Source: Candidatus Multivoradales bacterium
Lineage (GTDB): Bacteria; Acidobacteriota; Thermoanaerobaculia; Multivoradales; J023
Length of the DNA: 64,000 nucleotides
Direction of reading: 5' to 3'
NCBI GenBank assembly: GCA_965248925.1
Contig: CBDFLE010000006.1
Span: 3,936,001 to 4,000,000 of the forward strand
Made by a program: the position numbers and the translations under genes. Within the stretch, counting starts at the first letter, position 1, and the number at the start of each line of letters is the position of its first letter. Shown piece after piece: positions 50,269 to 64,000 of the stretch. The notes under the pieces were generated by a model. The model was given only the letters and a program-made list of their open reading frames with translations. It was not told the DNA's origin and did not search any database.

Positions 50269-52221
50269 GTGAAATTCGTCCGATCACCTTCGCAGAGGAA
50301 CCATCTCGCCGGCTTGTTGGCCGGCATAGTCTGTAGCTGGTGGCTACCAGCAATAGTGCTAGCGATGCCCCCAAGCGTTGTCACCTCAGACTCAGACAAG
50401 GCCGCGGATTCTGGTAAACGGCAGGTCGGCTTGCATATCGTTCGGCCTGGGGACACGCTGATGGATATCACCGAACTGTACCTGGGTGACCCACAGTTTT
50501 GGAAGCAGAACTGGCAGCTCAACCCGGCCCTGGAGGATCCTAATCTGCTGACTCCGGGGGCGCGGTTGCAAGTCTTGCTGCCGGCCGAACTGCCACCGCG
50601 AACCGCCTTGCTGGTCGGAACGACCCGCCGCGTCGACGACCGCCCGGCACCTTCGCCTTGGGCCTCGGCCGAGCAGAATGATCTGCTTTTTCCCCAGGAC
50701 AGCGTGCGCACCCATCGGGCGTCTTCGGCGGAGCTGGTCTTTCCCGATCGGACCCATTTGCTGCTGACCGAAGATTCTCTGGTTTTTCTTGGTGCCACCC
50801 TACCCATGCGGCGGGGGGTCGAACGGCGGTTGATCGAGATCGTCGCCGGCCAGGCTGAGTTGCAGGGTAGCTCACCGACGAGCATTTCGGAGGAGATCGA
50901 GATCGTCGTCGGCCACGCCCGGGCGATTCCACGGCGTGACCAGGAGGGAAGTCTCAAGACCCGTGCGCGGCGGGTAGGTGATGGTGCTCGGGTGATGGTC
51001 TATCGCGGCCAGAGCGAAGTCGAAGCGGCCGGGAAGACGGTCGAGGTCGAGCAGGGCATGGGCACTGCGGTGGAGCCGGGAGCGCCTCCCTCGCCGCCTG
51101 AGAAGCTGCTGCCGGAACCCGTGATGTTGGCTCCTCTGGCTGGCGCCGAGCGCGTCGAGCGACGGCCGGAGCTGCGCTGGCAGGCCCTCGAGGGAGCCAG
51201 CTCCTACACTGTCGAACTCTGCCTCGATCGCCGTTGCGGCGAGTTGGTGCAGCGGGTGACGGAGTTGCGGCAGGCTTCGTGGCAAGCCTCGGAGGAACTC
51301 GCTCTCGGTGCATATTTTTGGCGCGTTACTGCCCACAGCAGTTCGGGCTTAGACGGCTTTCCCAGCTCGGCGATCGGATTCCAGATCAACGATCTGCCGC
51401 TGGACGAGGTGCCGCCGCGCCTTGGTCTCGAGTGGGTCAATGGCCCTACCGCCGCCTTGGACGGGCAGCTGATCGTCGGTCGCGAGGTGCGCCTGCGGGT
51501 TGTTGCCGAGGACGATGAGAGTGGCCTCGATCATTGGACCGGCCTGCTTGATGACCGGCAGGCGCAGGCCGAGCAATGGCACGGGCCTTGGGCTTCGGGA
51601 CCACACCGGCTAGCGGCCTTGGCGGTCGATCGGGCGGGCAATGAGACCCGTTCCGAGACTCTTGAGATGGTCTATGATCCTGATCCACCGAAGATTTCCT
51701 GGGGCCTTGAAGGGCAAGGTGCGCAGGGGCGGGCGCAGGGCACGGTTGCCGCGGCGGCCAGTGGTTTAACCGGCGGTGCGGCCGGCGGTACGGTGGAACT
51801 GCAGTGGAGCGGAGACCTGCGGCAGTGGCTGCCTACCGGTCGCCAGCGCTGGACCTACCACGCGCAGAAACCGTGGGTGATGGTGCGCAAACATCGGGGG
51901 CGAAATCGTTGGGGAGTGTGGAGCGGTGACCGGGCGCGTCTGCGCCATCGCAACGAGAGGCGGCAAACCGTGCGGATGGAATTCGCTGGACCGCGGACAA
52001 CGTTGCGGCCGCCGGCCGGCGAGGTTGGCTTGGGCGACTCGGGCTTGATACTCACCGCGACTCGAGGTCTGTGGATTGAGGCTGACGATGCGCTTTCGCG
52101 GGTCGAGCGGCTGAGCTTCCAGGTATTGCCGCCGACCGTGGGTTCGCCGGCCCGGTTGGTGGTCGAGGCACGGGATACGGTGGGCAATCTCAGTCGGCTG
52201 GAGTGGGCACTATTGCCCTGA
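50269..52221 (+). CDS. Exported LysM plus FecR-like plus Ig/FN3-like protein
   Basis: HIVRPGDTL (LysM), D.VRT...SAELVFPD.T (FecR-like), AVDRAGN beta repeats. Confidence 0.75.
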   Translation: MKFVRSPSQRNHLAGLLAGIVCSWWLPAIVLAMPPSVVTSDSDKAADSGKRQVGLHIVRPGDTLMDITELYLGDPQFWKQNWQLNPALEDPNLLTPGARLQVLLPAELPPRTALLVGTTRRVDDRPAPSPWASAEQNDLLFPQDSVRTHRASSAELVFPDRTHLLLTEDSLVFLGATLPMRRGVERRLIEIVAGQAELQGSSPTSISEEIEIVVGHARAIPRRDQEGSLKTRARRVGDGARVMVYRGQSEVEAAGKTVEVEQGMGTAVEPGAPPSPPEKLLPEPVMLAPLAGAERVERRPELRWQALEGASSYTVELCLDRRCGELVQRVTELRQASWQASEELALGAYFWRVTAHSSSGLDGFPSSAIGFQINDLPLDEVPPRLGLEWVNGPTAALDGQLIVGREVRLRVVAEDDESGLDHWTGLLDDRQAQAEQWHGPWASGPHRLAALAVDRAGNETRSETLEMVYDPDPPKISWGLEGQGAQGRAQGTVAAAASGLTGGAAGGTVELQWSGDLRQWLPTGRQRWTYHAQKPWVMVRKHRGRNRWGVWSGDRARLRHRNERRQTVRMEFAGPRTTLRPPAGEVGLGDSGLILTATRGLWIEADDALSRVERLSFQVLPPTVGSPARLVVEARDTVGNLSRLEWALLP

Positions 52222-54167
52222 GTGTAGCTCGGAGTCCATGGTTGAAGCCTCTTCGGCTACCGCTGCTGGCGCGTTTGGCACTGACTTTGTCGGTGATTGG
52301 GTTGCTGCCGCTGCTGATCGGCTTTTACCAGCTGCGCAGCAACGAGGATGGGTTGCTAGCGCAAGTCCAGCGCTCGCACATCATTGCCGCCGCTAGTTGT
52401 GCCGAGCGGGTTGCCGCGCACCTTGATGGGCTGCGCACCTTGGCGCAGAGCACCGCCAACCAACCGGCGATTCAGTCCGATCCGGGATCGCCCACCGCCG
52501 GCGAGTTGTTGGCCGGTCTGCTGCACGCCCGCGCGGATGTGGTTTTAGTCGCTACCTACAATCTGGCTGGAGAATCCTATCTGGCGGCTCAGCGGCGCGA
52601 CTTGCGAGCTGAGATCGAGCCCGCCTTGAGCCGTGTCCTGGAATCCACGGAACCGATGGGCCTGGTTGCCGGCAGCAGCGCAGAGTGGCTGTTTTTTCGC
52701 GTTGCCTTGGTCGAGGAACAGGGCTATCTCATTTTGCTAGCCGAAGGAGAGCCGCTGGCTGGCATGGTGCAGGTGATCGAACTCGGTGAGGAAGCGCACT
52801 TGGTCTTGGCCGACCGCGATGGCGAGGTGTTCTACGGTGGTCTCGATGATCTGGCCGAGTTCCCGCCTGGCGCGGTCGAGCTAGCGGCTAGTGGCAAGCT
52901 CACTTCCAGTTGTCAGCGCTATTCATTCGCCGGCGTCGAGCAGTTGGTGGTGGCTCATCATTTAGTTCATGGCACGCCTTGGTTCGTACTTTCCCGGCAG
53001 CCGGCGCGGCAGGCGGAGATCGCCCGTGCGCGCATTGATCGGGCCCGCTGGTTAGCGGCAGGGCTGGTCCTGGTGCTCAGTGGAGTGGTGCTGGCATTGG
53101 CCTACTTCAGCGTCGTTCGGCCCTTGCGCCGGATTGTTGGTGCCCAACGCGAGCTGGCGGGTAGCGCCGCAAAGGTGGTGGCGGGCTCGGAAATTGAGCA
53201 GCTTGAGGAGTCCTTCCGGCTGCTCGAGCAAGGACAGCGCGATCGCGATGAGCTCGGCCAGGTGTTTCTCGGTCGCTACCAGGTGATCGAGCTGGCGGGC
53301 TCGGGGTCGATGGGCAACGTTTTTCGTGGCTGGGATCCCCGGTTGCGACGATCAGTGGCACTCAAGACCATCCGCCTTGACAGTGCCAAATTCGATCGCC
53401 AGAAACTCAGTCAGAGCTTGGTCGAGGAAGCGGTTGCCTACGCCCGCTTCAACCACCCCAACATCGTTACTGTTTATGATGTGTTGGAAGGTGGAGATTC
53501 GACCTGTATCGCGATGGAGTTTGTCGACGGCCCCTCTCTCGAAGCCCTGTTGGCCCGGCATGGGCCGCTAAGTCCGGAGCGGGCTCTGCATGTCGCCATG
53601 GCAGTGGCGCGGGCGCTGGTCGAAGCTCATGCCCATCAGCTGGTTCACCATGACATCAAGCCCGCCAACGTCTTGATCGGTAAGGACGGCGAGATCAAGG
53701 TGACCGATTTCGGCATCTCGGAGTTGCTCTCCTTCGCCACCCGCGACAAGCGGCAGATTCGCGGTACGCCTGGCTACATTCCTCCTGAGAGTCTTGAAAG
53801 CGGCCAATACGACACCCGTAGCGACCTCTTCGCTCTCGGGGTGGTGATCTACGAGTGCTTAACCGCGCGCCAACCCTTCGTGGGCAAGAATCTCCGTCAA
53901 ACCTTGCTGCGCACGGCCACCGAGACACCGGAGGAGCCCAGGGGCCTGGCGCCCAGGGTGCCGCAGCGGTTCTCCGATCTGGTGATGCAGCTCTTGGCCA
54001 AGGAACCTGCGCAGCGTCTCGATTCGGCGCTGGCGGTGGTGGAGGTTTTAGAAAGCTTGGCGGTCGGTATCGAGGACTCGCCCTGGTTGCCCGGTGATTT
54101 GGATCCTGAATTGGTGGCGTCTCCGCGGGACACCCGACACGGTACGCAGTGGGTCGGTCGTGGCTAG
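52203..54167 (+). CDS. Membrane Ser/Thr protein kinase with periplasmic Cache-like domain
   Basis: Two TM helices; GSGSMG, VALK, HHDIKPAN, DFG, GTPGYIPPE. Confidence 0.9.
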   Translation: MGTIALSVARSPWLKPLRLPLLARLALTLSVIGLLPLLIGFYQLRSNEDGLLAQVQRSHIIAAASCAERVAAHLDGLRTLAQSTANQPAIQSDPGSPTAGELLAGLLHARADVVLVATYNLAGESYLAAQRRDLRAEIEPALSRVLESTEPMGLVAGSSAEWLFFRVALVEEQGYLILLAEGEPLAGMVQVIELGEEAHLVLADRDGEVFYGGLDDLAEFPPGAVELAASGKLTSSCQRYSFAGVEQLVVAHHLVHGTPWFVLSRQPARQAEIARARIDRARWLAAGLVLVLSGVVLALAYFSVVRPLRRIVGAQRELAGSAAKVVAGSEIEQLEESFRLLEQGQRDRDELGQVFLGRYQVIELAGSGSMGNVFRGWDPRLRRSVALKTIRLDSAKFDRQKLSQSLVEEAVAYARFNHPNIVTVYDVLEGGDSTCIAMEFVDGPSLEALLARHGPLSPERALHVAMAVARALVEAHAHQLVHHDIKPANVLIGKDGEIKVTDFGISELLSFATRDKRQIRGTPGYIPPESLESGQYDTRSDLFALGVVIYECLTARQPFVGKNLRQTLLRTATETPEEPRGLAPRVPQRFSDLVMQLLAKEPAQRLDSALAVVEVLESLAVGIEDSPWLPGDLDPELVASPRDTRHGTQWVGRG

Positions 54168-54188: not shown

Positions 54189-54237
54189 CGCGCAGGGTTG
54201 AAACCCCGCGCTAAGTGATGACGTCCCTGTCGGGACG
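54189..54237. repeat. REP-like double hairpin, inverted relative of 1830-1878
   Basis: CGCGCAGGGTTGAAACCCCGCGCTA...CGTCCCTGTCGGGACG between convergent genes. Confidence 0.75.
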
Positions 54238-59249: not shown

Positions 59250-61175
59250 GTGAACCCTGAACTAGGCCCCGACCTGGACGAGAGCGATCTAGAGGAGATC
59301 GCTGCCTTGCTCGATGGTCGGCTCAAAGGCGCTGCTCGGCAGCAGGCTTTGCAGCTTCTCGACCAGAACGAGCAGGCATACCAGATCTACGTCGAGAGTG
59401 CCCGCTTCCTCGATTGGCAGCAAGAACAGGAGCCAGTGGCGCCGCTGGGCGAAGCTCTGCCCTCAGAATCGCGAACTCGCTGGCGGTGGCTCGCGGCAGT
59501 GGCTGCGTTGGCGCTGCTCGGCATGGCGCTTTGGTTGGCGAAGTTGACCACCCCACAGAATTCGGAGGAGTTCTTGGCCGGCGCCAATTATGCTCAGCAA
59601 AACAAGCTGCTGGCGCGCCAAATTTTCTCTGGCCTGGAAGGCGGTTTGGTGGCGAGTGATGATTGGCCCGCCTGGTTGCGGCCGCTTCTGGAGCCCTTGG
59701 CAAGTTGGCGCGCGTCTTCGCTCAACGACCTCGTGGCAGCAATGGAGGTGGGCACCGAGCACCACTATCAGATGGCTGGGTTGAACCTTGACCCCGATGT
59801 AGTCGCCGAGCAGAGCGAGCGCTTGGTCATGGGCGTGGTCGTGGGTCGCCAGCGTCAGCGGCTCCGATTGTTGCTCGAGGGGAGACTCGAGCCATCGCTC
59901 AAGAAACTCGATCAATTCGATCTCGCCTTCTACCTCTTCGCCCTGGGCAGCCCGGATTTGGCGGTGCAGCAATTCGCAAGTCTGAGCTCTGAACGCGGGT
60001 CGGGTTTCCAGGGTCAGAGTCTGGCGGTAGCGAATAACCTGGGTCTGGTGCAGCTGCTGCGGGCGCATGAAGGGTTGAATCGCTGTAGTTCGAACCTGGC
60101 AACTGCGGTCTTGCCACCGATGGCCTACGACCTGCGACGCCCATTCAGCGTCAAGCGGGGACTCGGTGAGGAATGGGCCCCATGCGAGGCGATCTTCGCT
60201 CCCCTACTCGACGAAGTTCTCGTCTCTTTCGTCGAGTTGATCGCTCGTGATCCATCCTACGAGCCGTCGCAGATCAACTACATGGCGGCACAGCTGCTCG
60301 GACATCGTGGCGATGAGTTGGCTGCCCATCTCGAGCAGCTACCGGAGGGCCTGCGGCGAACAGCCGCGGTCAATATATTTGCCGCTCTGGCTCCATTGGC
60401 CTTGCGTTACGACGTTTGTGAAGAGGACGAGTCTCTCTGTGCCAGTGCCTTGAAGCAGCTGGACGATTTGCGGGCCACGGCCGTGTTGCCGGGCGCCCTC
60501 GAAGGGCCGCTGAGTTACAACCGGGCGATGATCCTGCGACGGCTGGGTCGAGTCGATGAGAGTGAGTTGGAGTTGCGGCACTTTCTTGAGCTAACGGCGG
60601 GTGGGATCTACGAAGAAAGCGCTCGCTCGAAGTTGCGAACAAAGCAGGTGCCAACGCCACCGCTTGAAGACGCTGAGTTGCAAGCAGCGATCGTTGAAGC
60701 GCTGGACCGCATCGACCCGAATCAGCTCGACGTTCTTCGTCAACAGCCAGTTGCAATCGGTTCGTCGAGCTGGCGATTGCTGCGCCCGGGACCTTCGACT
60801 TCGCTCTCGCTGGTAGTTGCATCTGAGACTCAGACCGTTCTGGCGGTGAGGCTCCTCGACGTACCAGCTAGTCCAGCCAAACTTGGATTCGGCACCGGCG
60901 GTGAGCGCCCAAACTTGCTAGCTCCTCTTCGCCTTGATCTTGGCGAAGGGGACGAACTGTTCGGGTTCCGCCGTCTATCCACCTTGGTCCACGGTCAATC
61001 CGGGTTCGACAACGAAATCTGGATGCGCGGCGGATTGGGTTATCGGGTGATGCGCGGAGCCGACGGCAGACGGCAGGTTCAGGCTCAGATCTTGGTGCGT
61101 CCGGGGTTTATGGAACGGGCAGTCGAGGAAATCGCCGCCGAAGTAGTGTCCGAGGTGGCGTCGGGCACGCTCTGA
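59250..61175 (+). CDS. Putative anti-sigma factor with TM and TPR-like periplasmic region
   Basis: EEIAALLDGRL N-terminus, RWRWLAAVAA TM, NNLG and YNRA TPR-like motifs. Confidence 0.65.
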   Translation: MNPELGPDLDESDLEEIAALLDGRLKGAARQQALQLLDQNEQAYQIYVESARFLDWQQEQEPVAPLGEALPSESRTRWRWLAAVAALALLGMALWLAKLTTPQNSEEFLAGANYAQQNKLLARQIFSGLEGGLVASDDWPAWLRPLLEPLASWRASSLNDLVAAMEVGTEHHYQMAGLNLDPDVVAEQSERLVMGVVVGRQRQRLRLLLEGRLEPSLKKLDQFDLAFYLFALGSPDLAVQQFASLSSERGSGFQGQSLAVANNLGLVQLLRAHEGLNRCSSNLATAVLPPMAYDLRRPFSVKRGLGEEWAPCEAIFAPLLDEVLVSFVELIARDPSYEPSQINYMAAQLLGHRGDELAAHLEQLPEGLRRTAAVNIFAALAPLALRYDVCEEDESLCASALKQLDDLRATAVLPGALEGPLSYNRAMILRRLGRVDESELELRHFLELTAGGIYEESARSKLRTKQVPTPPLEDAELQAAIVEALDRIDPNQLDVLRQQPVAIGSSSWRLLRPGPSTSLSLVVASETQTVLAVRLLDVPASPAKLGFGTGGERPNLLAPLRLDLGEGDELFGFRRLSTLVHGQSGFDNEIWMRGGLGYRVMRGADGRRQVQAQILVRPGFMERAVEEIAAEVVSEVASGTL

Positions 61176-61190
61176 CACCCGCTTGACACC
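61173..61190 (+). promoter_or_regulatory. Putative enhancer 1: TGACACC-N4-TGACACC
   Basis: 11-bp-period direct repeat about 93 bp upstream of a -24 element; repeated at 61480-61497. Confidence 0.65.
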
Positions 61191-61280
61191 TCCTGCCGGT
61201 CTCTTGCCCCGTTGGGGTCATTCTGCATCAAACTGTTCATAAGAAGGATCTTAGGTAATTCCTGGCGCGCTTTCTCGAAG

Positions 61281-61297
61281 CTGGCGCAAGCCTTGCT
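61281..61297 (+). promoter_or_regulatory. Sigma54 promoter 1 (CTGGCGCAAGCCTTGCT)
   Basis: GG at 61283-61284 and GC at 61295-61296, canonical -24/-12 spacing. Confidence 0.8.
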
Positions 61298-61307
61298 TTA
61301 GTCCTTC

Positions 61308-61416
61308 TTGTCTGGCAGCAAGATCCCCAGAACGGGATCGCCGGGCAGCACAAGGACTCCAGCGGAGAACCGCGCACTTCCGCTTTCGAGGACCGCTTCG
61401 GCGGTCCTTCTTTTTT
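61308..61416 (+). ncRNA. Predicted sigma54-dependent sRNA 1 (~109 nt, three stem-loops)
   Basis: Starts at the predicted TSS; ends GAGGACCGC-TTCG-GCGGTCCTT-C-T6. Confidence 0.65.
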
Positions 61417-61479
61417 GCTCTACTGCATCCCTCACCGGTTGTGATGCCGGCCGAGTGTCCGACACTCTACGCACCTGTC

Positions 61480-61497
61480 TGACACCATGCTGACACC
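61480..61497 (+). promoter_or_regulatory. Putative enhancer 2: TGACACC-N4-TGACACC
   Basis: Same motif, about 78 bp upstream of the second -24 element. Confidence 0.65.
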
Positions 61498-61572
61498 TTC
61501 GCGGGCGCTGGCGAGTTTTCTGGAAAAGTTGATAACTCGTTTGTGTGCAGCAGTTAAGAAAATCATGCAAAA

Positions 61573-61590
61573 CTGGTATGAGGCTTGCTA
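61573..61590 (+). promoter_or_regulatory. Sigma54 promoter 2 (CTGGTATGAGGCTTGCTA)
   Basis: GG at 61575-61576 and GC at 61587-61588. Confidence 0.75.
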
Positions 61591-61599
61591 CTAGAGAAT

Positions 61600-61740
61600 C
61601 CCAGAGACCAAGCAGTCGGTGCCCGGCGCGGGCCGGGTACCAAGCCAGACGCGAACGAGTCTCTTGCCGGAGATCTCCCTTTGCGGACTCTCCGCACTTT
61701 CTCTCTCTCCAGGGGTCGCTCTGCGACCCCTGCTTCTTTT
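61600..61740 (+). ncRNA. Predicted sigma54-dependent sRNA 2 (~140 nt)
   Basis: 5' nested hairpin, TGCGGA/TCCGCA hairpin, CU-rich tract, terminator CAGGGGTCGC-TCT-GCGACCCCTG-CTTCTTTT. Confidence 0.6.
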
Positions 61741-63365
61741 CAGGGAAGTTCGAGCCCGGTCATCCGCATCCGCAAGCCGCTTTTCGAGACTTCGAGTTCG
61801 TCGACCATGGCGTCGAGGTCGCCGGCACAACTCTGCCATGAGGCCATGATCTCGGTGCGGTCGAGGTCGACCGCCTTGCGGACCTGCGCGCATCTTTCGA
61901 TCAAGGTGTAGAGAGAAGGTCTCGAGATGCCCAGCTGCTGGGCGGTGGGCTTGAGTTGCCAACGGTTGTTCCGCAAGGCGGTCCGTAGCTCCTCCTCGTC
62001 GACCTCGGAGGGTTTGCGAAAGCTGCTCGGCTTACGCCGTGGCGCGGCCGCTGCGGTCTCTAGCGCGGTGACCTCTGGCGCCCGTTGGCGGGCCAGGCTG
62101 GCTTCGGCCTCGCGCAGCATGCGCTCGATCTGGGGGCTGATCCTGACTTCCGCCGAGCCCCGGTTGGCCACCACCAGCTGGCGGGCCACGTTGCGCAGCT
62201 GGCGTACATTGCCGGGCCATGGATGGTGGGTCAAGCGGGCAACGATCGATGCCGGCAGCCAGGGGTTGTCAGAGTGAGCGAGTTCCCCCAGACGGTATTC
62301 CTCGCCAGTGCCTCGCAGTTCCTGGCGTAGGAAATGAACAAGCAGGCGGCCGATGTCTTCGCGGCGCTCGCGCAGCGGCGGTACGTTGATCTCGTAGCCC
62401 GACAAGCGATGCAGCAGAGGCTCACGGAACTTGCCGCTGCGGATCGCCGCTTCGAGATCGGCATCGGTGGCGGCGATCAAGCGAACATCGACCCGGTGGG
62501 CTTCTTGGCTGCCGACCCTCTGCACCTCACCGGATTCGAGCACCCGCAGCAGCAGCACTTGCACCTCCGAGGGGGCGTCGCCGATCTCGTCGAGGAAGAG
62601 GGTGCCGCCGTGAGCCCGTGAAAAGTAACCCACCTGATTGCGCACCGAACCGGTGTAGGCACCCTTGGCCGAGCCAAAGAGTTCAGCGGTGGCTAGGGAG
62701 GCCGGGACTGCCGCCAGGTTGACGCTGAGGAAATCTTGCCGCTGGCGCTTGCTGCTCTGGTGAATAGCCTGTGCCACCAGTTCCTTGCCGGTGCCGGTTT
62801 CGCTGCGCAGCAACACTGGCACTTCTAGGTCGGCGACGCGATCGATCTCCTCGCGAACTCTAACGATCGCGTCGCTTTCGCCGATCAGGCCGAATCGGTC
62901 TGCCTTGTAGACCGCTGCCTCGCGGGTCAGATGGAGCAGCAAAACCACTCGGCTGGCGAGCAGCAGCACCACCCCGCGTTGCAGATCATAGGCTGAGATC
63001 AAGTGTTCGTCCTCGATCTCCAGGCCATCCAGCAGCACGTCGCTGCCCCTGGACTCAAGGGTCAGGCGTAGGCCGTCGGTGCGCGTGCTGCGGCTCAAAC
63101 GGAGGGGAGTTCGGCTGAGATAGGGGGATTCCAGCGGCCGCGCCTCGCGCTGCCCGGGGATCGAGAATTCCGGAATCAAACGCGAGACCAAGGCGGGCTT
63201 GCTTTCGGTTAGGCCGTGCAGAAGGGCGCGTTCGCCGACGCGATCGATCTGCGGATGGTAAATAACCGTCAGGACAGGGATCTTGGCCCGCGCCCTGGCG
63301 CGACGCTCAGCAAACTGCGCGCGCAGCTCGGGCGTCAGCTTCTCGACAGTCTCATCTGGTGCCAT
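61740..63365 (-). CDS. Sigma54-dependent enhancer-binding protein with non-REC (possibly FHA-like) N-terminus
   Basis: ETGTGKE, ELFG, GAYTGS, FLDEIG, WPGNVRQL, C-terminal HTH. Confidence 0.92.
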   Translation of the reverse strand: MAPDETVEKLTPELRAQFAERRARARAKIPVLTVIYHPQIDRVGERALLHGLTESKPALVSRLIPEFSIPGQREARPLESPYLSRTPLRLSRSTRTDGLRLTLESRGSDVLLDGLEIEDEHLISAYDLQRGVVLLLASRVVLLLHLTREAAVYKADRFGLIGESDAIVRVREEIDRVADLEVPVLLRSETGTGKELVAQAIHQSSKRQRQDFLSVNLAAVPASLATAELFGSAKGAYTGSVRNQVGYFSRAHGGTLFLDEIGDAPSEVQVLLLRVLESGEVQRVGSQEAHRVDVRLIAATDADLEAAIRSGKFREPLLHRLSGYEINVPPLRERREDIGRLLVHFLRQELRGTGEEYRLGELAHSDNPWLPASIVARLTHHPWPGNVRQLRNVARQLVVANRGSAEVRISPQIERMLREAEASLARQRAPEVTALETAAAAPRRKPSSFRKPSEVDEEELRTALRNNRWQLKPTAQQLGISRPSLYTLIERCAQVRKAVDLDRTEIMASWQSCAGDLDAMVDELEVSKSGLRMRMTGLELP

Positions 63366-63386
63366 TGTTGACAGTCTACAGCACCC

Positions 63387-64000
63387 TCAATCGAACAGCG
63401 AAGCCTCGGTCTGTTCGTACCAGTCGACAATACCGGCCCACACCTGCTCGGCGGTTTCGGCGAATTGGAAGAGGTCGACATCCTCCGGGTCGATCACCCC
63501 TTCCGCGGCCAGGAACTCGGCATCGAAGACGCCGCGCCAAAAAGACTCGCCGACCAGGAAGACCGGCAGAGGGCGGACCTTGCGAGTCTGGATCAAGCAA
63601 AGAGTCTCGAACAGTTCATCGAGGGTGCCGTAGCCGCCGGGGAAAGCCACCAGCGCCTTGGCGCGCATCAGAAAGTGCATCTTGCGCATGCCGAAATAGC
63701 GAAATTGGAAGCACAGGTCGGGGGTGATGTAGGGATTCGGGTACTGCTCGTGGGGCAGGGTGATATTCAACCCGAGAGACTCGGCGCCGACATCGTGAGC
63801 GCCGCGGTTGCCGGCCTCCATAATGCCCGGTCCGCCGCCGGTGACCACCATTAAGCGATTGTCCTCGGGGCCGCCGCCGGCTTTGCTCACCAGCTGGCCT
63901 AGGCGCCGCGCCTCGTCGTAGTAGCGACATTTGGCGAGCACCCGCTCGCGGATCGATACCTGGCGTTTCAGGTTATGGTTCTGCGGTTCCTGGGTGAGAG
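63387..64000 (-). CDS. LOG family protein (5'-truncated at window edge)
   Basis: TGGGPGIMEAGNRGA, RKMHF, PGGYGTLDE. Confidence 0.92.
   Translation of the reverse strand, partial: LTQEPQNHNLKRQVSIRERVLAKCRYYDEARRLGQLVSKAGGGPEDNRLMVVTGGGPGIMEAGNRGAHDVGAESLGLNITLPHEQYPNPYITPDLCFQFRYFGMRKMHFLMRAKALVAFPGGYGTLDELFETLCLIQTRKVRPLPVFLVGESFWRGVFDAEFLAAEGVIDPEDVDLFQFAETAEQVWAGIVDWYEQTEASLFD

Follow-up and report, generated by a model that had tools for sequence, protein, structure and literature searches.

The window analysed here is a stretch of 64,000 nucleotides from the genome of Candidatus Multivoradales bacterium, a member of the Acidobacteriota (C6:3936001-4000000 of the source genome, an assembly of 7,980,589 bases). 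Towards its right end, an open reading frame (ORF) of 641 amino acids and the gene for a sigma-54 activator, i.e. a bacterial enhancer-binding protein (bEBP), face each other across a spacer of 564 bp (61176-61739). In and at the edge of this spacer one arrangement occurs twice: a direct-repeat array, an AT-rich stretch, a -24/-12 promoter for sigma-54, a hairpin-rich sequence and an intrinsic terminator (Table 1). We propose, at a probability of roughly 0.6, that these are two sigma-54 units run by the adjacent FHA-type activator, and that each would yield a short, structured non-coding RNA.

Table 1. Features of the locus and its surroundings, with positions in the window.
Feature	Position	Strand	Description
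Enhancer (upstream activating sequence, UAS) 1	61145..61190	+	GTCCGAGGT, GTCGGGCAC, then perfect TGACACC at 61173-61179 and 61184-61190
AT-rich spacer 1	61200..61281	+	GC 0.43 over 61200-61259
Sigma-54 promoter P1	61282-61297	+	TGGCGC-N5-TTGCT, TGGCGCAAGCCTTGCT; predicted start ~61308
Candidate small RNA (sRNA) 1	61308..61416	+	~109 nt; 5' stem-loop, C/U-rich CGCACUUCCGCUUUC, terminator
Terminator 1	stem 61388-61409	+	tail CTTTTTTGCT
Enhancer (UAS) 2	61454..61497	+	GTCCGACAC, degenerate unit, then TGACACC at 61480-61486 and 61491-61497
AT-rich spacer 2	61500..61573	+	GC 0.40-0.50; 0.40 over 61530-61589
Sigma-54 promoter P2	61574-61589	+	TGGTAT-N5-TTGCT, TGGTATGAGGCTTGCT; predicted start ~61600
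Candidate sRNA 2	61600..61740	+	~140 nt; GC-rich hairpin 61618-61641, small hairpin 61682-61696, C/U-rich CGCACUUUCUCUCUCUCC, terminator
Terminator 2	stem 61710-61732	+	tail CTTCTTTTCA; 10 pairs, 8 GC
Sigma-54 activator (bEBP), 541 aa	61740..63365	-	assigned by Pfam; convergent on candidate sRNA 2
641-aa ORF	59250..61175	+	possible anti-sigma factor, by position and a sub-threshold match
Extracytoplasmic function (ECF)-type sigma-70 factor, 246 aa	58396..59136	+	TIGR02937, 49.5 bits vs cut-off 42.9
Ser/Thr protein kinase gene	52203..54167	+	Pkinase, E 1.1e-51

Results

Two cassettes of one design

Both cassettes open with AGTGTCCGA (61145-61153 and 61454-61462), which is followed by TGACACC-N4-TGACACC (61173-61190 and 61480-61497). 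These are the only two matches to the latter motif in all 7,980,589 bases of the genome, for which we estimate a chance expectation of about 0.06, and the surrounding 606-bp region is single-copy. Parsed by reading, each cassette holds about four direct-repeat units of 10-11 bp that are GTCYGACAC-like, the two promoter-proximal ones being perfect. AGTGTCCGA itself is best read as part of this putative enhancer array and not as a separate element; GTGTCCGAC is a repeat unit that also stands beside the paralogous activator gene at locus L005 (described below). The cassettes are tightly packed against the genes on both sides: the TGA of the first TGACACC (61173-61175) is the stop codon of the 641-amino-acid ORF, and the stop codon of the activator gene (61740-61742) lies within the tail of terminator 2. 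An earlier note on this DNA had described a duplicated architecture in the gap, including the paired TGACACC repeats, and all of its elements are present where it had placed them. The architecture of the locus is far beyond chance.

Between array and promoter, both cassettes carry a stretch that is markedly richer in AT than the contigs at large, which have a background GC of 0.62-0.64. Spacer 1 contains an IHF-like core, ATCAA-N4-TT, at 61227-61237, and spacer 2 a TTGAT core at 61529-61533. The same ATCAA/TTGAT core is also found in the spacers of the third array site and of L183, both introduced below, and we take it to be a possible site for IHF-type bending.

Both promoters retain the GG dinucleotide at -24 and the GC dinucleotide at -12 at the correct spacing, in agreement with the -24/-12 promoters claimed for each copy, and the start positions of the two RNAs were derived from the usual distance between promoter and start. 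Throughout the source genome, which has one copy each of rpoN and hfq, there are 229 sigma-54-like promoter matches, 12 of them with any terminator-like hairpin within 320 nt. Upon reading these 12, only P1 and P2 combine an intergenic position with a long GC-rich stem and a U-tract.

Both of the intrinsic terminators predicted on the + strand were found, and they are the top two of nine terminator-like sites in 60000-64000, where 3.2 would be expected. The candidate RNAs that they close are predicted to fold more stably than shuffled sequences: sRNA 1 reaches a minimum free energy of -47.4 kcal/mol (z -2.99; 2 of 200 shuffles as stable) and sRNA 2 one of -66.1 kcal/mol (z -4.39; 0 of 200). 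Neither predicted transcript contains an ATG, and their GTG, TTG and CTG frames have no Shine-Dalgarno (SD) motif and no stop before the terminator, which bears out the claim that the 110-140-nt transcribed parts hold no ORF led by a ribosome-binding site. Global alignment likewise agrees with the observation that the control elements are kept while the transcribed parts diverge, as the former align between cassettes and the latter do not. The Rfam search that had been suggested places the candidate RNAs outside Rfam families: at E <=10, the region 60500-62300 returned just two microRNA noise matches with E ~5, and at gathering score, a search of the whole window found nothing in the candidate-RNA region, its sole match being an Acido-Lenti-1 RNA further upstream (see below).

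The repeat as a probable enhancer of the activator

Searching the whole source genome for arrays of at least three GACA[CT] cores at 9-12-nt spacing yielded a single such array, located 3.65 Mb away at C6:281735-281700(-) and reading CGACACC...CCGACACCCTTTGACACCCTTTGACACCC. This third array site continues with a 79-nt AT-rich spacer, the promoter TGGCCCGCGGGTTGCA, and a leader of ~80 nt to the ATG of a gene for a 390-amino-acid protein with a signal peptide (C6:280363-281535(-)), which matches no Pfam family. There are three TGACACC pairs with 3-4-base spacing in the genome, and each is followed by a sigma-54 promoter at a distance of 77-92 nt. Of nine looser GACAC pairs, none is followed by a sigma-54-like motif on its own strand, and two have a weak motif on the opposite strand.

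A comparable layout is found in a relative. Among 40 related genomes, the best homologue of the activator is encoded in G010:C684 (55% identity, E 8e-177), and directly upstream of its gene lies an array of 4-5 TGACAC units, CCGACACC-TCC-TGACACG-GCC-TGACACC-CTC-TGACACG, followed after 79 nt by the promoter TGGCACGCGGCTTGCT and a gene for a 146-amino-acid secreted protein. We furthermore scanned one genome per species for TGACACC-N3-4-TGACAC-N70-100-TGGY-N7-TTGCW, which gave 25 matches against the ~17 that we estimate for chance. Only L180, which is the G010 site, and L183 were judged to belong to this system, while L189 and L199 likewise show repeat arrays; none of the 25 matches drives an ORF-free unit. 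L183, in genome G041, has a like array and promoter before a 1224-amino-acid, repeat-built secreted protein, and this protein is homologous to the 146-amino-acid target in G010 over at least seven repeats (42% identity, E 1e-24). The pairing of enhancer and secreted protein at these two sites thus looks like a regulon conserved across genera, as far as such resemblance can tell. None of the seven activator-family members in G041 has a TGACAC array in its flanks of up to 1.5 kb.

Because the third array, the site of the G010 homologue and L183 agree, the reading of the TGACACC repeat as an enhancer of the adjacent activator is supported, with binding as the presumed basis. The earlier assignment of the motif to this activator is strengthened both by the three-out-of-three association with sigma-54 promoters and by its occurrence beside the G010 homologue. 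The 390-amino-acid gene is probably a protein-coding target of the same activator, and since this distant gene stands under the same motif, the regulon would therefore consist of at least three promoters.

The activator and its family

The activator carries a Sigma54_activat domain (PF00158, E 8.7e-60, residues 160-326) with an AAA lid and a loop reading GAYTGS, the bEBP consensus being GAFTGA, as well as a HTH_8 domain at residues 454-486 that just passes its cut-off of 22 with 22.1 bits; no NCBIfam equivalog scored above its cut-off. Pfam assigns no family to its first 160 residues, and the Pfam FHA domain was undetected by sequence. However, a profile of 55 members of the activator family matches the FHA structure 3gqs_A (E 9.5e-4), an AlphaFold model reaches a predicted local distance difference test (pLDDT) of 86.3, and among the PDB matches listed by Foldseek nearly all are titled FHA-domain proteins, with a target-normalised template-modelling score of up to 0.78 for GarA/OdhI-type chains. 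Because profile, model and fold matches point the same way, the activator is, going by its modelled structure, an FHA-AAA+-HTH protein with the FHA fold at about residues 28-150. The family also keeps a second helix-turn-helix-like stretch, LEVSxxGLRxRM, after HTH_8 (residues ~490-541; 61740-61900, - strand), and this stretch may bear on direct-repeat recognition.

The source genome has a single full-length member of this family, as 31 of 32 tblastn matches start at residue 148 or later and share only the AAA+ and HTH part. Full-length homologues (41-57% identity) are numerous in some relatives, with 17 in G016, 13 in G020, 17 in G009, six in G012 and seven in G041. We surveyed 71 loci of the family (L001-L020, L102-L118 and L121-L154), taking in up to 1.5 kb of flanking sequence. 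At 26 of the 71, the activator gene has a strict sigma-54 promoter outside it, for a total of 30 promoters. Many of the 30 stand behind direct repeats in tandem with a period of 10-12, such as GTCCGACrT, GTCCGACATT, CGGACGTCCG and TCGACAT. Most surveyed promoters drive SD-led ORFs, often with signal peptides; by a script test, this applies to 25 of the 28 promoters outside this window, and the case at L005 was judged spurious.

Two loci have an output resembling the one proposed here. At L130 (G020:C31, 3023-3268), the stop codon of the activator gene is followed by three CGGACGTCCG units, the promoter TGGCATCTTCTTTGCT, ~115 nt and a terminator composed of GCCGCCCGG...CCGGGCGGC and six T, with a fold z of -4.59. 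At L005 (G012:C266, 3083-3322), four GTCCGACrT units precede TGGCACGAGCCTTGCT, ~100 nt and a long stem with eight U (fold z -4.37). Both units are ORF-free over 100-130 nt, run in the same direction as the activator gene and end in a strong terminator, and therefore RNA-only output seems to recur in the family, each time with a different sequence.

Two further loci of the survey deserve mention. The sigma-54 promoter at L117 (G016:C22) has a terminator behind it at +175 to +210 and then, at +236, an SD-led ORF, a layout that could represent either a leader of attenuator type or an sRNA gene placed before a protein gene. L003:3140-3290 (G033:C5) holds a 48-nt repeat in three tandem copies, just 3' of the activator homologue.

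Neighbouring genes and other elements

Upstream of the cassettes, the 641-amino-acid ORF matches no Pfam family, and its best indication of function is a match to NF052375 with E 1.8e-4 and 21.6 bits against a cut-off of 100. The label 'anti-sigma gene' that it had been given is thus kept as a tentative one, on position and a match below threshold. Judged only by proximity, the Ser/Thr kinase gene further upstream might provide the input of the FHA domain. Between this gene and a hybrid histidine kinase gene sits an Acido-Lenti-1 RNA (RF01687) at 54191-54237 (+), which at 38.3 bits lies just above the gathering score of 37.

Elsewhere in the source genome, a 57-nt C-rich element (CACCCCGACC...CCCCGACTTCT) is present in 12 copies plus one shorter copy, at C6:3501093-3516676, C6:3627146, C5:924276-976564 and C4:73407. 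The copies partly recur every 7.5-12 kb, a spacing that hints at a gene cassette in multiple copies or at a mobile element.

Discussion

Both units show every sequence feature of sigma-54- and activator-dependent non-coding RNA genes, the functional class to which Qrr, Pxr, CrcZ, GlmY and NrsZ belong. That the two are real, activator-dependent transcription units we regard as likely; that their products are functional non-coding RNAs appears reasonably probable, and that these would be trans-acting sRNAs that work by base-pairing is a tentative proposal to which we give somewhat less than even odds. The course of events may be pictured as follows. A signal, probably a phospho-threonine ligand provided by a Ser/Thr kinase, would be sensed by the FHA domain, upon which the AAA+ ring is released. 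The C-terminal HTH would bind the 10-11-bp direct-repeat arrays, whose core (T/C)GACACC and position 77-92 nt upstream are visible in the DNA, and the AT-rich spacer, perhaps with the help of IHF, would bend so that the ATPase reaches the sigma-54 holoenzyme at -24/-12. Transcription is predicted to run from ~61308 and ~61600 to the two terminators, giving RNAs of ~109 or 140 nt, which would most likely act in trans by pairing, together with Hfq, via the C/U-rich single-stranded stretch before the terminator. The activator would also drive the distant gene of the 390-amino-acid secreted protein.

So what weighs against two functional RNAs under this activator? The promoters P1 and P2 deviate from TGGCAC-N5-TTGCW by one and two positions, respectively, and the two candidate RNAs share merely a stretch of 15 nt at 80% identity just 5' of their terminators (CGCACTTCCGCTTTC vs CGCACTTTCTCTCTC). 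Conservation of the RNAs is missing: none of 23 genomes of the same family matches the 606-bp region, and a search of metagenome contigs gave 499 activator relatives, of which the best has 45% identity, and no homologue of either RNA. The earlier note had named beforehand, as grounds for refuting its proposal, the absence of the promoter-hairpin-terminator layout beside orthologues; alongside the closest activator homologues (G010, G019, G033 and G041) no such unit is present, and the visible targets of these homologues are secreted proteins. This lack is softened only by the ORF-free layout at L130 and L005, which are paralogues from other genera, and outside their own genomes the RNAs of these two loci have only short matches as well, those inspected for L130 lying in coding sequence and those for L005 falling in its repeat array. 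Four sequencing runs, all of one study, contain the stretch, and none is recorded as RNA. Four candidate mRNAs, those of the third target and of the activator, ECF sigma and 641-amino-acid genes, pair with the RNAs through their 5' regions at background level. All points in this paragraph thus count against the proposal, and the multi-sRNA circuit that had been ascribed to the adjacent activator is partly supported, by its motif, promoter and terminator features and not by the layout at the closest homologues.

For the choice of a target, whole-molecule duplex energies against candidate mRNAs were uninformative. When pairing was scored in local windows of 24 nt, the leader of the ECF sigma gene came out as a candidate for either RNA (0 of 30 and 2 of 30 shuffles), and it was rejected upon comparison with random genomic windows, among which it ranks 13/230 and 28/230.

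The same locus could be read in other ways. If the activator-dependent promoters are real and their protein targets have decayed, the short transcripts would be relics that have no function of their own. This would suit the family survey, in which most local sigma-54 promoters drive SD-led ORFs, the secreted proteins driven by TGACAC-type orthologues, and the lack of homologues of the candidate RNAs. However, tblastn of the three known TGACACC-type targets against 61101-61800 gave noise only (best E 0.45), there is no stop codon in any frame, and a double decay would not be expected to leave each transcript with its own strong terminator 109-140 nt past the start and with folding better than that of shuffled sequence; we consider such relics unlikely. 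Pure coincidence, with motifs that are non-functional and hairpins that merely terminate the ECF sigma operon, has in its favour that sigma-54-like strings are frequent, as the count of 229 shows, and that terminator 1, at 213 nt past the 641-amino-acid ORF, could close an operon. Yet the end of an operon needs no second terminator, and the geometry of enhancer, spacer and promoter is seen at three sites in the genome and once more at the G010 homologue, making coincidence very improbable. A coding role, with small peptides read from non-canonical starts, we find barely conceivable, as there is nothing more to suggest this than open frames from TTG 61308 and GTG 61619, which lack an SD motif and a stop before the terminator, in transcripts devoid of ATG.

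Real and functional transcripts might also act differently from the way proposed. Transcription from P2, and from P1, converges on the activator gene, and antisense pairing or collision of polymerases could provide negative feedback in cis. The activator stop codon within the tail of terminator 2 is suggestive of this, as is the fact that, read on the - strand, GGAGAGAGAGAAAG and not a U-tract comes after the hairpin, whereby the activator mRNA must enter the sRNA 2 gene. However, terminator 2 is strong, hence little read-through is expected; cassette 1 lies 320 nt further away and has its own terminator; and the RNA units at L130 and L005 share the strand of the activator gene, hence convergence is not general. 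A role in cis therefore strikes us as quite unlikely. The RNAs could alternatively titrate a protein, in the manner of CsrB/RsmZ or CrcZ and with no base-pairing involved, the latter being a sigma-54/CbrB-dependent decoy encoded just after cbrB. While sRNA 1 indeed has four GGA triplets, including ACAAGGAC, we estimate that about two would occur by chance in 110 nt at such GC; moreover, no CsrA family match was found in this 96.9% complete genome, and repeated A-rich Hfq/Crc motifs are absent, so that a decoy function is highly improbable. Two activator-driven units yielding structured non-coding RNAs remain the reading that we prefer.

The closest known arrangement is that of Pxr. As described in PMC5568312, pxr of Myxococcus adjoins the sigma-54 activator gene nla19, has its own sigma-54 promoter and encodes a multi-stem-loop RNA, and in Cystobacter there are tandem pxr paralogues, each with its own sigma-54 promoter, at 14-23% distance. 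The circuit had been called possibly undescribed, which applies to the RNAs found here, as they lack an Rfam match, and fails for the design, for which tandem pxr is a precedent (PMC5568312). An sRNA gene in the spacer beside an activator gene, a sigma-54 promoter of its own and the tandem state in Cystobacter are what the two systems have in common. In contrast to Pxr, the present RNAs have no sequence or Rfam similarity to it, and the two cannot be aligned with each other, whereas the Cystobacter paralogues are recognisable as such. Moreover, the activator has an FHA domain in place of a receiver domain, and the orientation here is convergent.

The Qrr1-5 RNAs of Vibrio are Hfq-dependent base-pairing RNAs with a conserved seed and genes dispersed over the genome, and their activator LuxO is a response regulator. 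Several sigma-54-dependent sRNAs under one activator, one of them encoded beside the activator gene, are a common trait; unlike the Qrr RNAs, which share a seed and are dispersed, the present RNAs have no Rfam match. CrcZ and CrcY of Pseudomonas, under CbrB, and GlmY, under GlrR, are decoy RNAs with repeated protein-binding motifs. There too, a sigma-54 promoter and an enhancer beside the activator gene drive a non-coding RNA, and at L130 and L005 the candidate sRNA gene likewise comes right after the activator gene. In contrast, no protein-binding repeats are seen at our locus, and CsrA was not found. As to the activator, Jelsbak et al. reportedly described, in 2005, FHA-domain enhancer-binding proteins of Myxococcus xanthus with a presumed Ser/Thr kinase input. 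These have the same FHA, AAA+ and HTH architecture; they differ in that the present FHA domain has diverged too far for Pfam and was recognised only by its fold, and in that the present family is expanded in an Acidobacteriota-like lineage and has local direct-repeat enhancers. A literature search, with supplements lying outside it, returned no paper that treats this activator family, and none on Acidobacteria with sigma-54-dependent sRNAs.

If the RNAs are real, an uncultured lineage of the Acidobacteriota joins those in which an sRNA gene is paired with the sigma-54 activator that controls it. The locus would form a small regulon of three promoters under one enhancer motif, which makes an uncharacterised family of FHA-type activators directly testable. 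The pattern within that family, with direct-repeat enhancers beside the paralogues and outputs that are swapped between protein and RNA, suggests that sRNAs may be born behind existing promoter modules. Taken further, and here we are speculating beyond what we think likely, FHA-AAA+-HTH proteins could make up a large modular family of private switches from Ser/Thr kinase to sigma-54, each with its own local enhancer of 10-11-bp direct repeats and an output that is either a secreted protein or a newborn sRNA, where in the present genome a single survivor would run one secreted protein and two unrelated sRNAs. If true, this would be a route from kinase via FHA domain and sigma-54 to sRNA that is not described for this phylum, and the family would offer a natural series of sRNA genes arising behind pre-existing enhancer-promoter modules.

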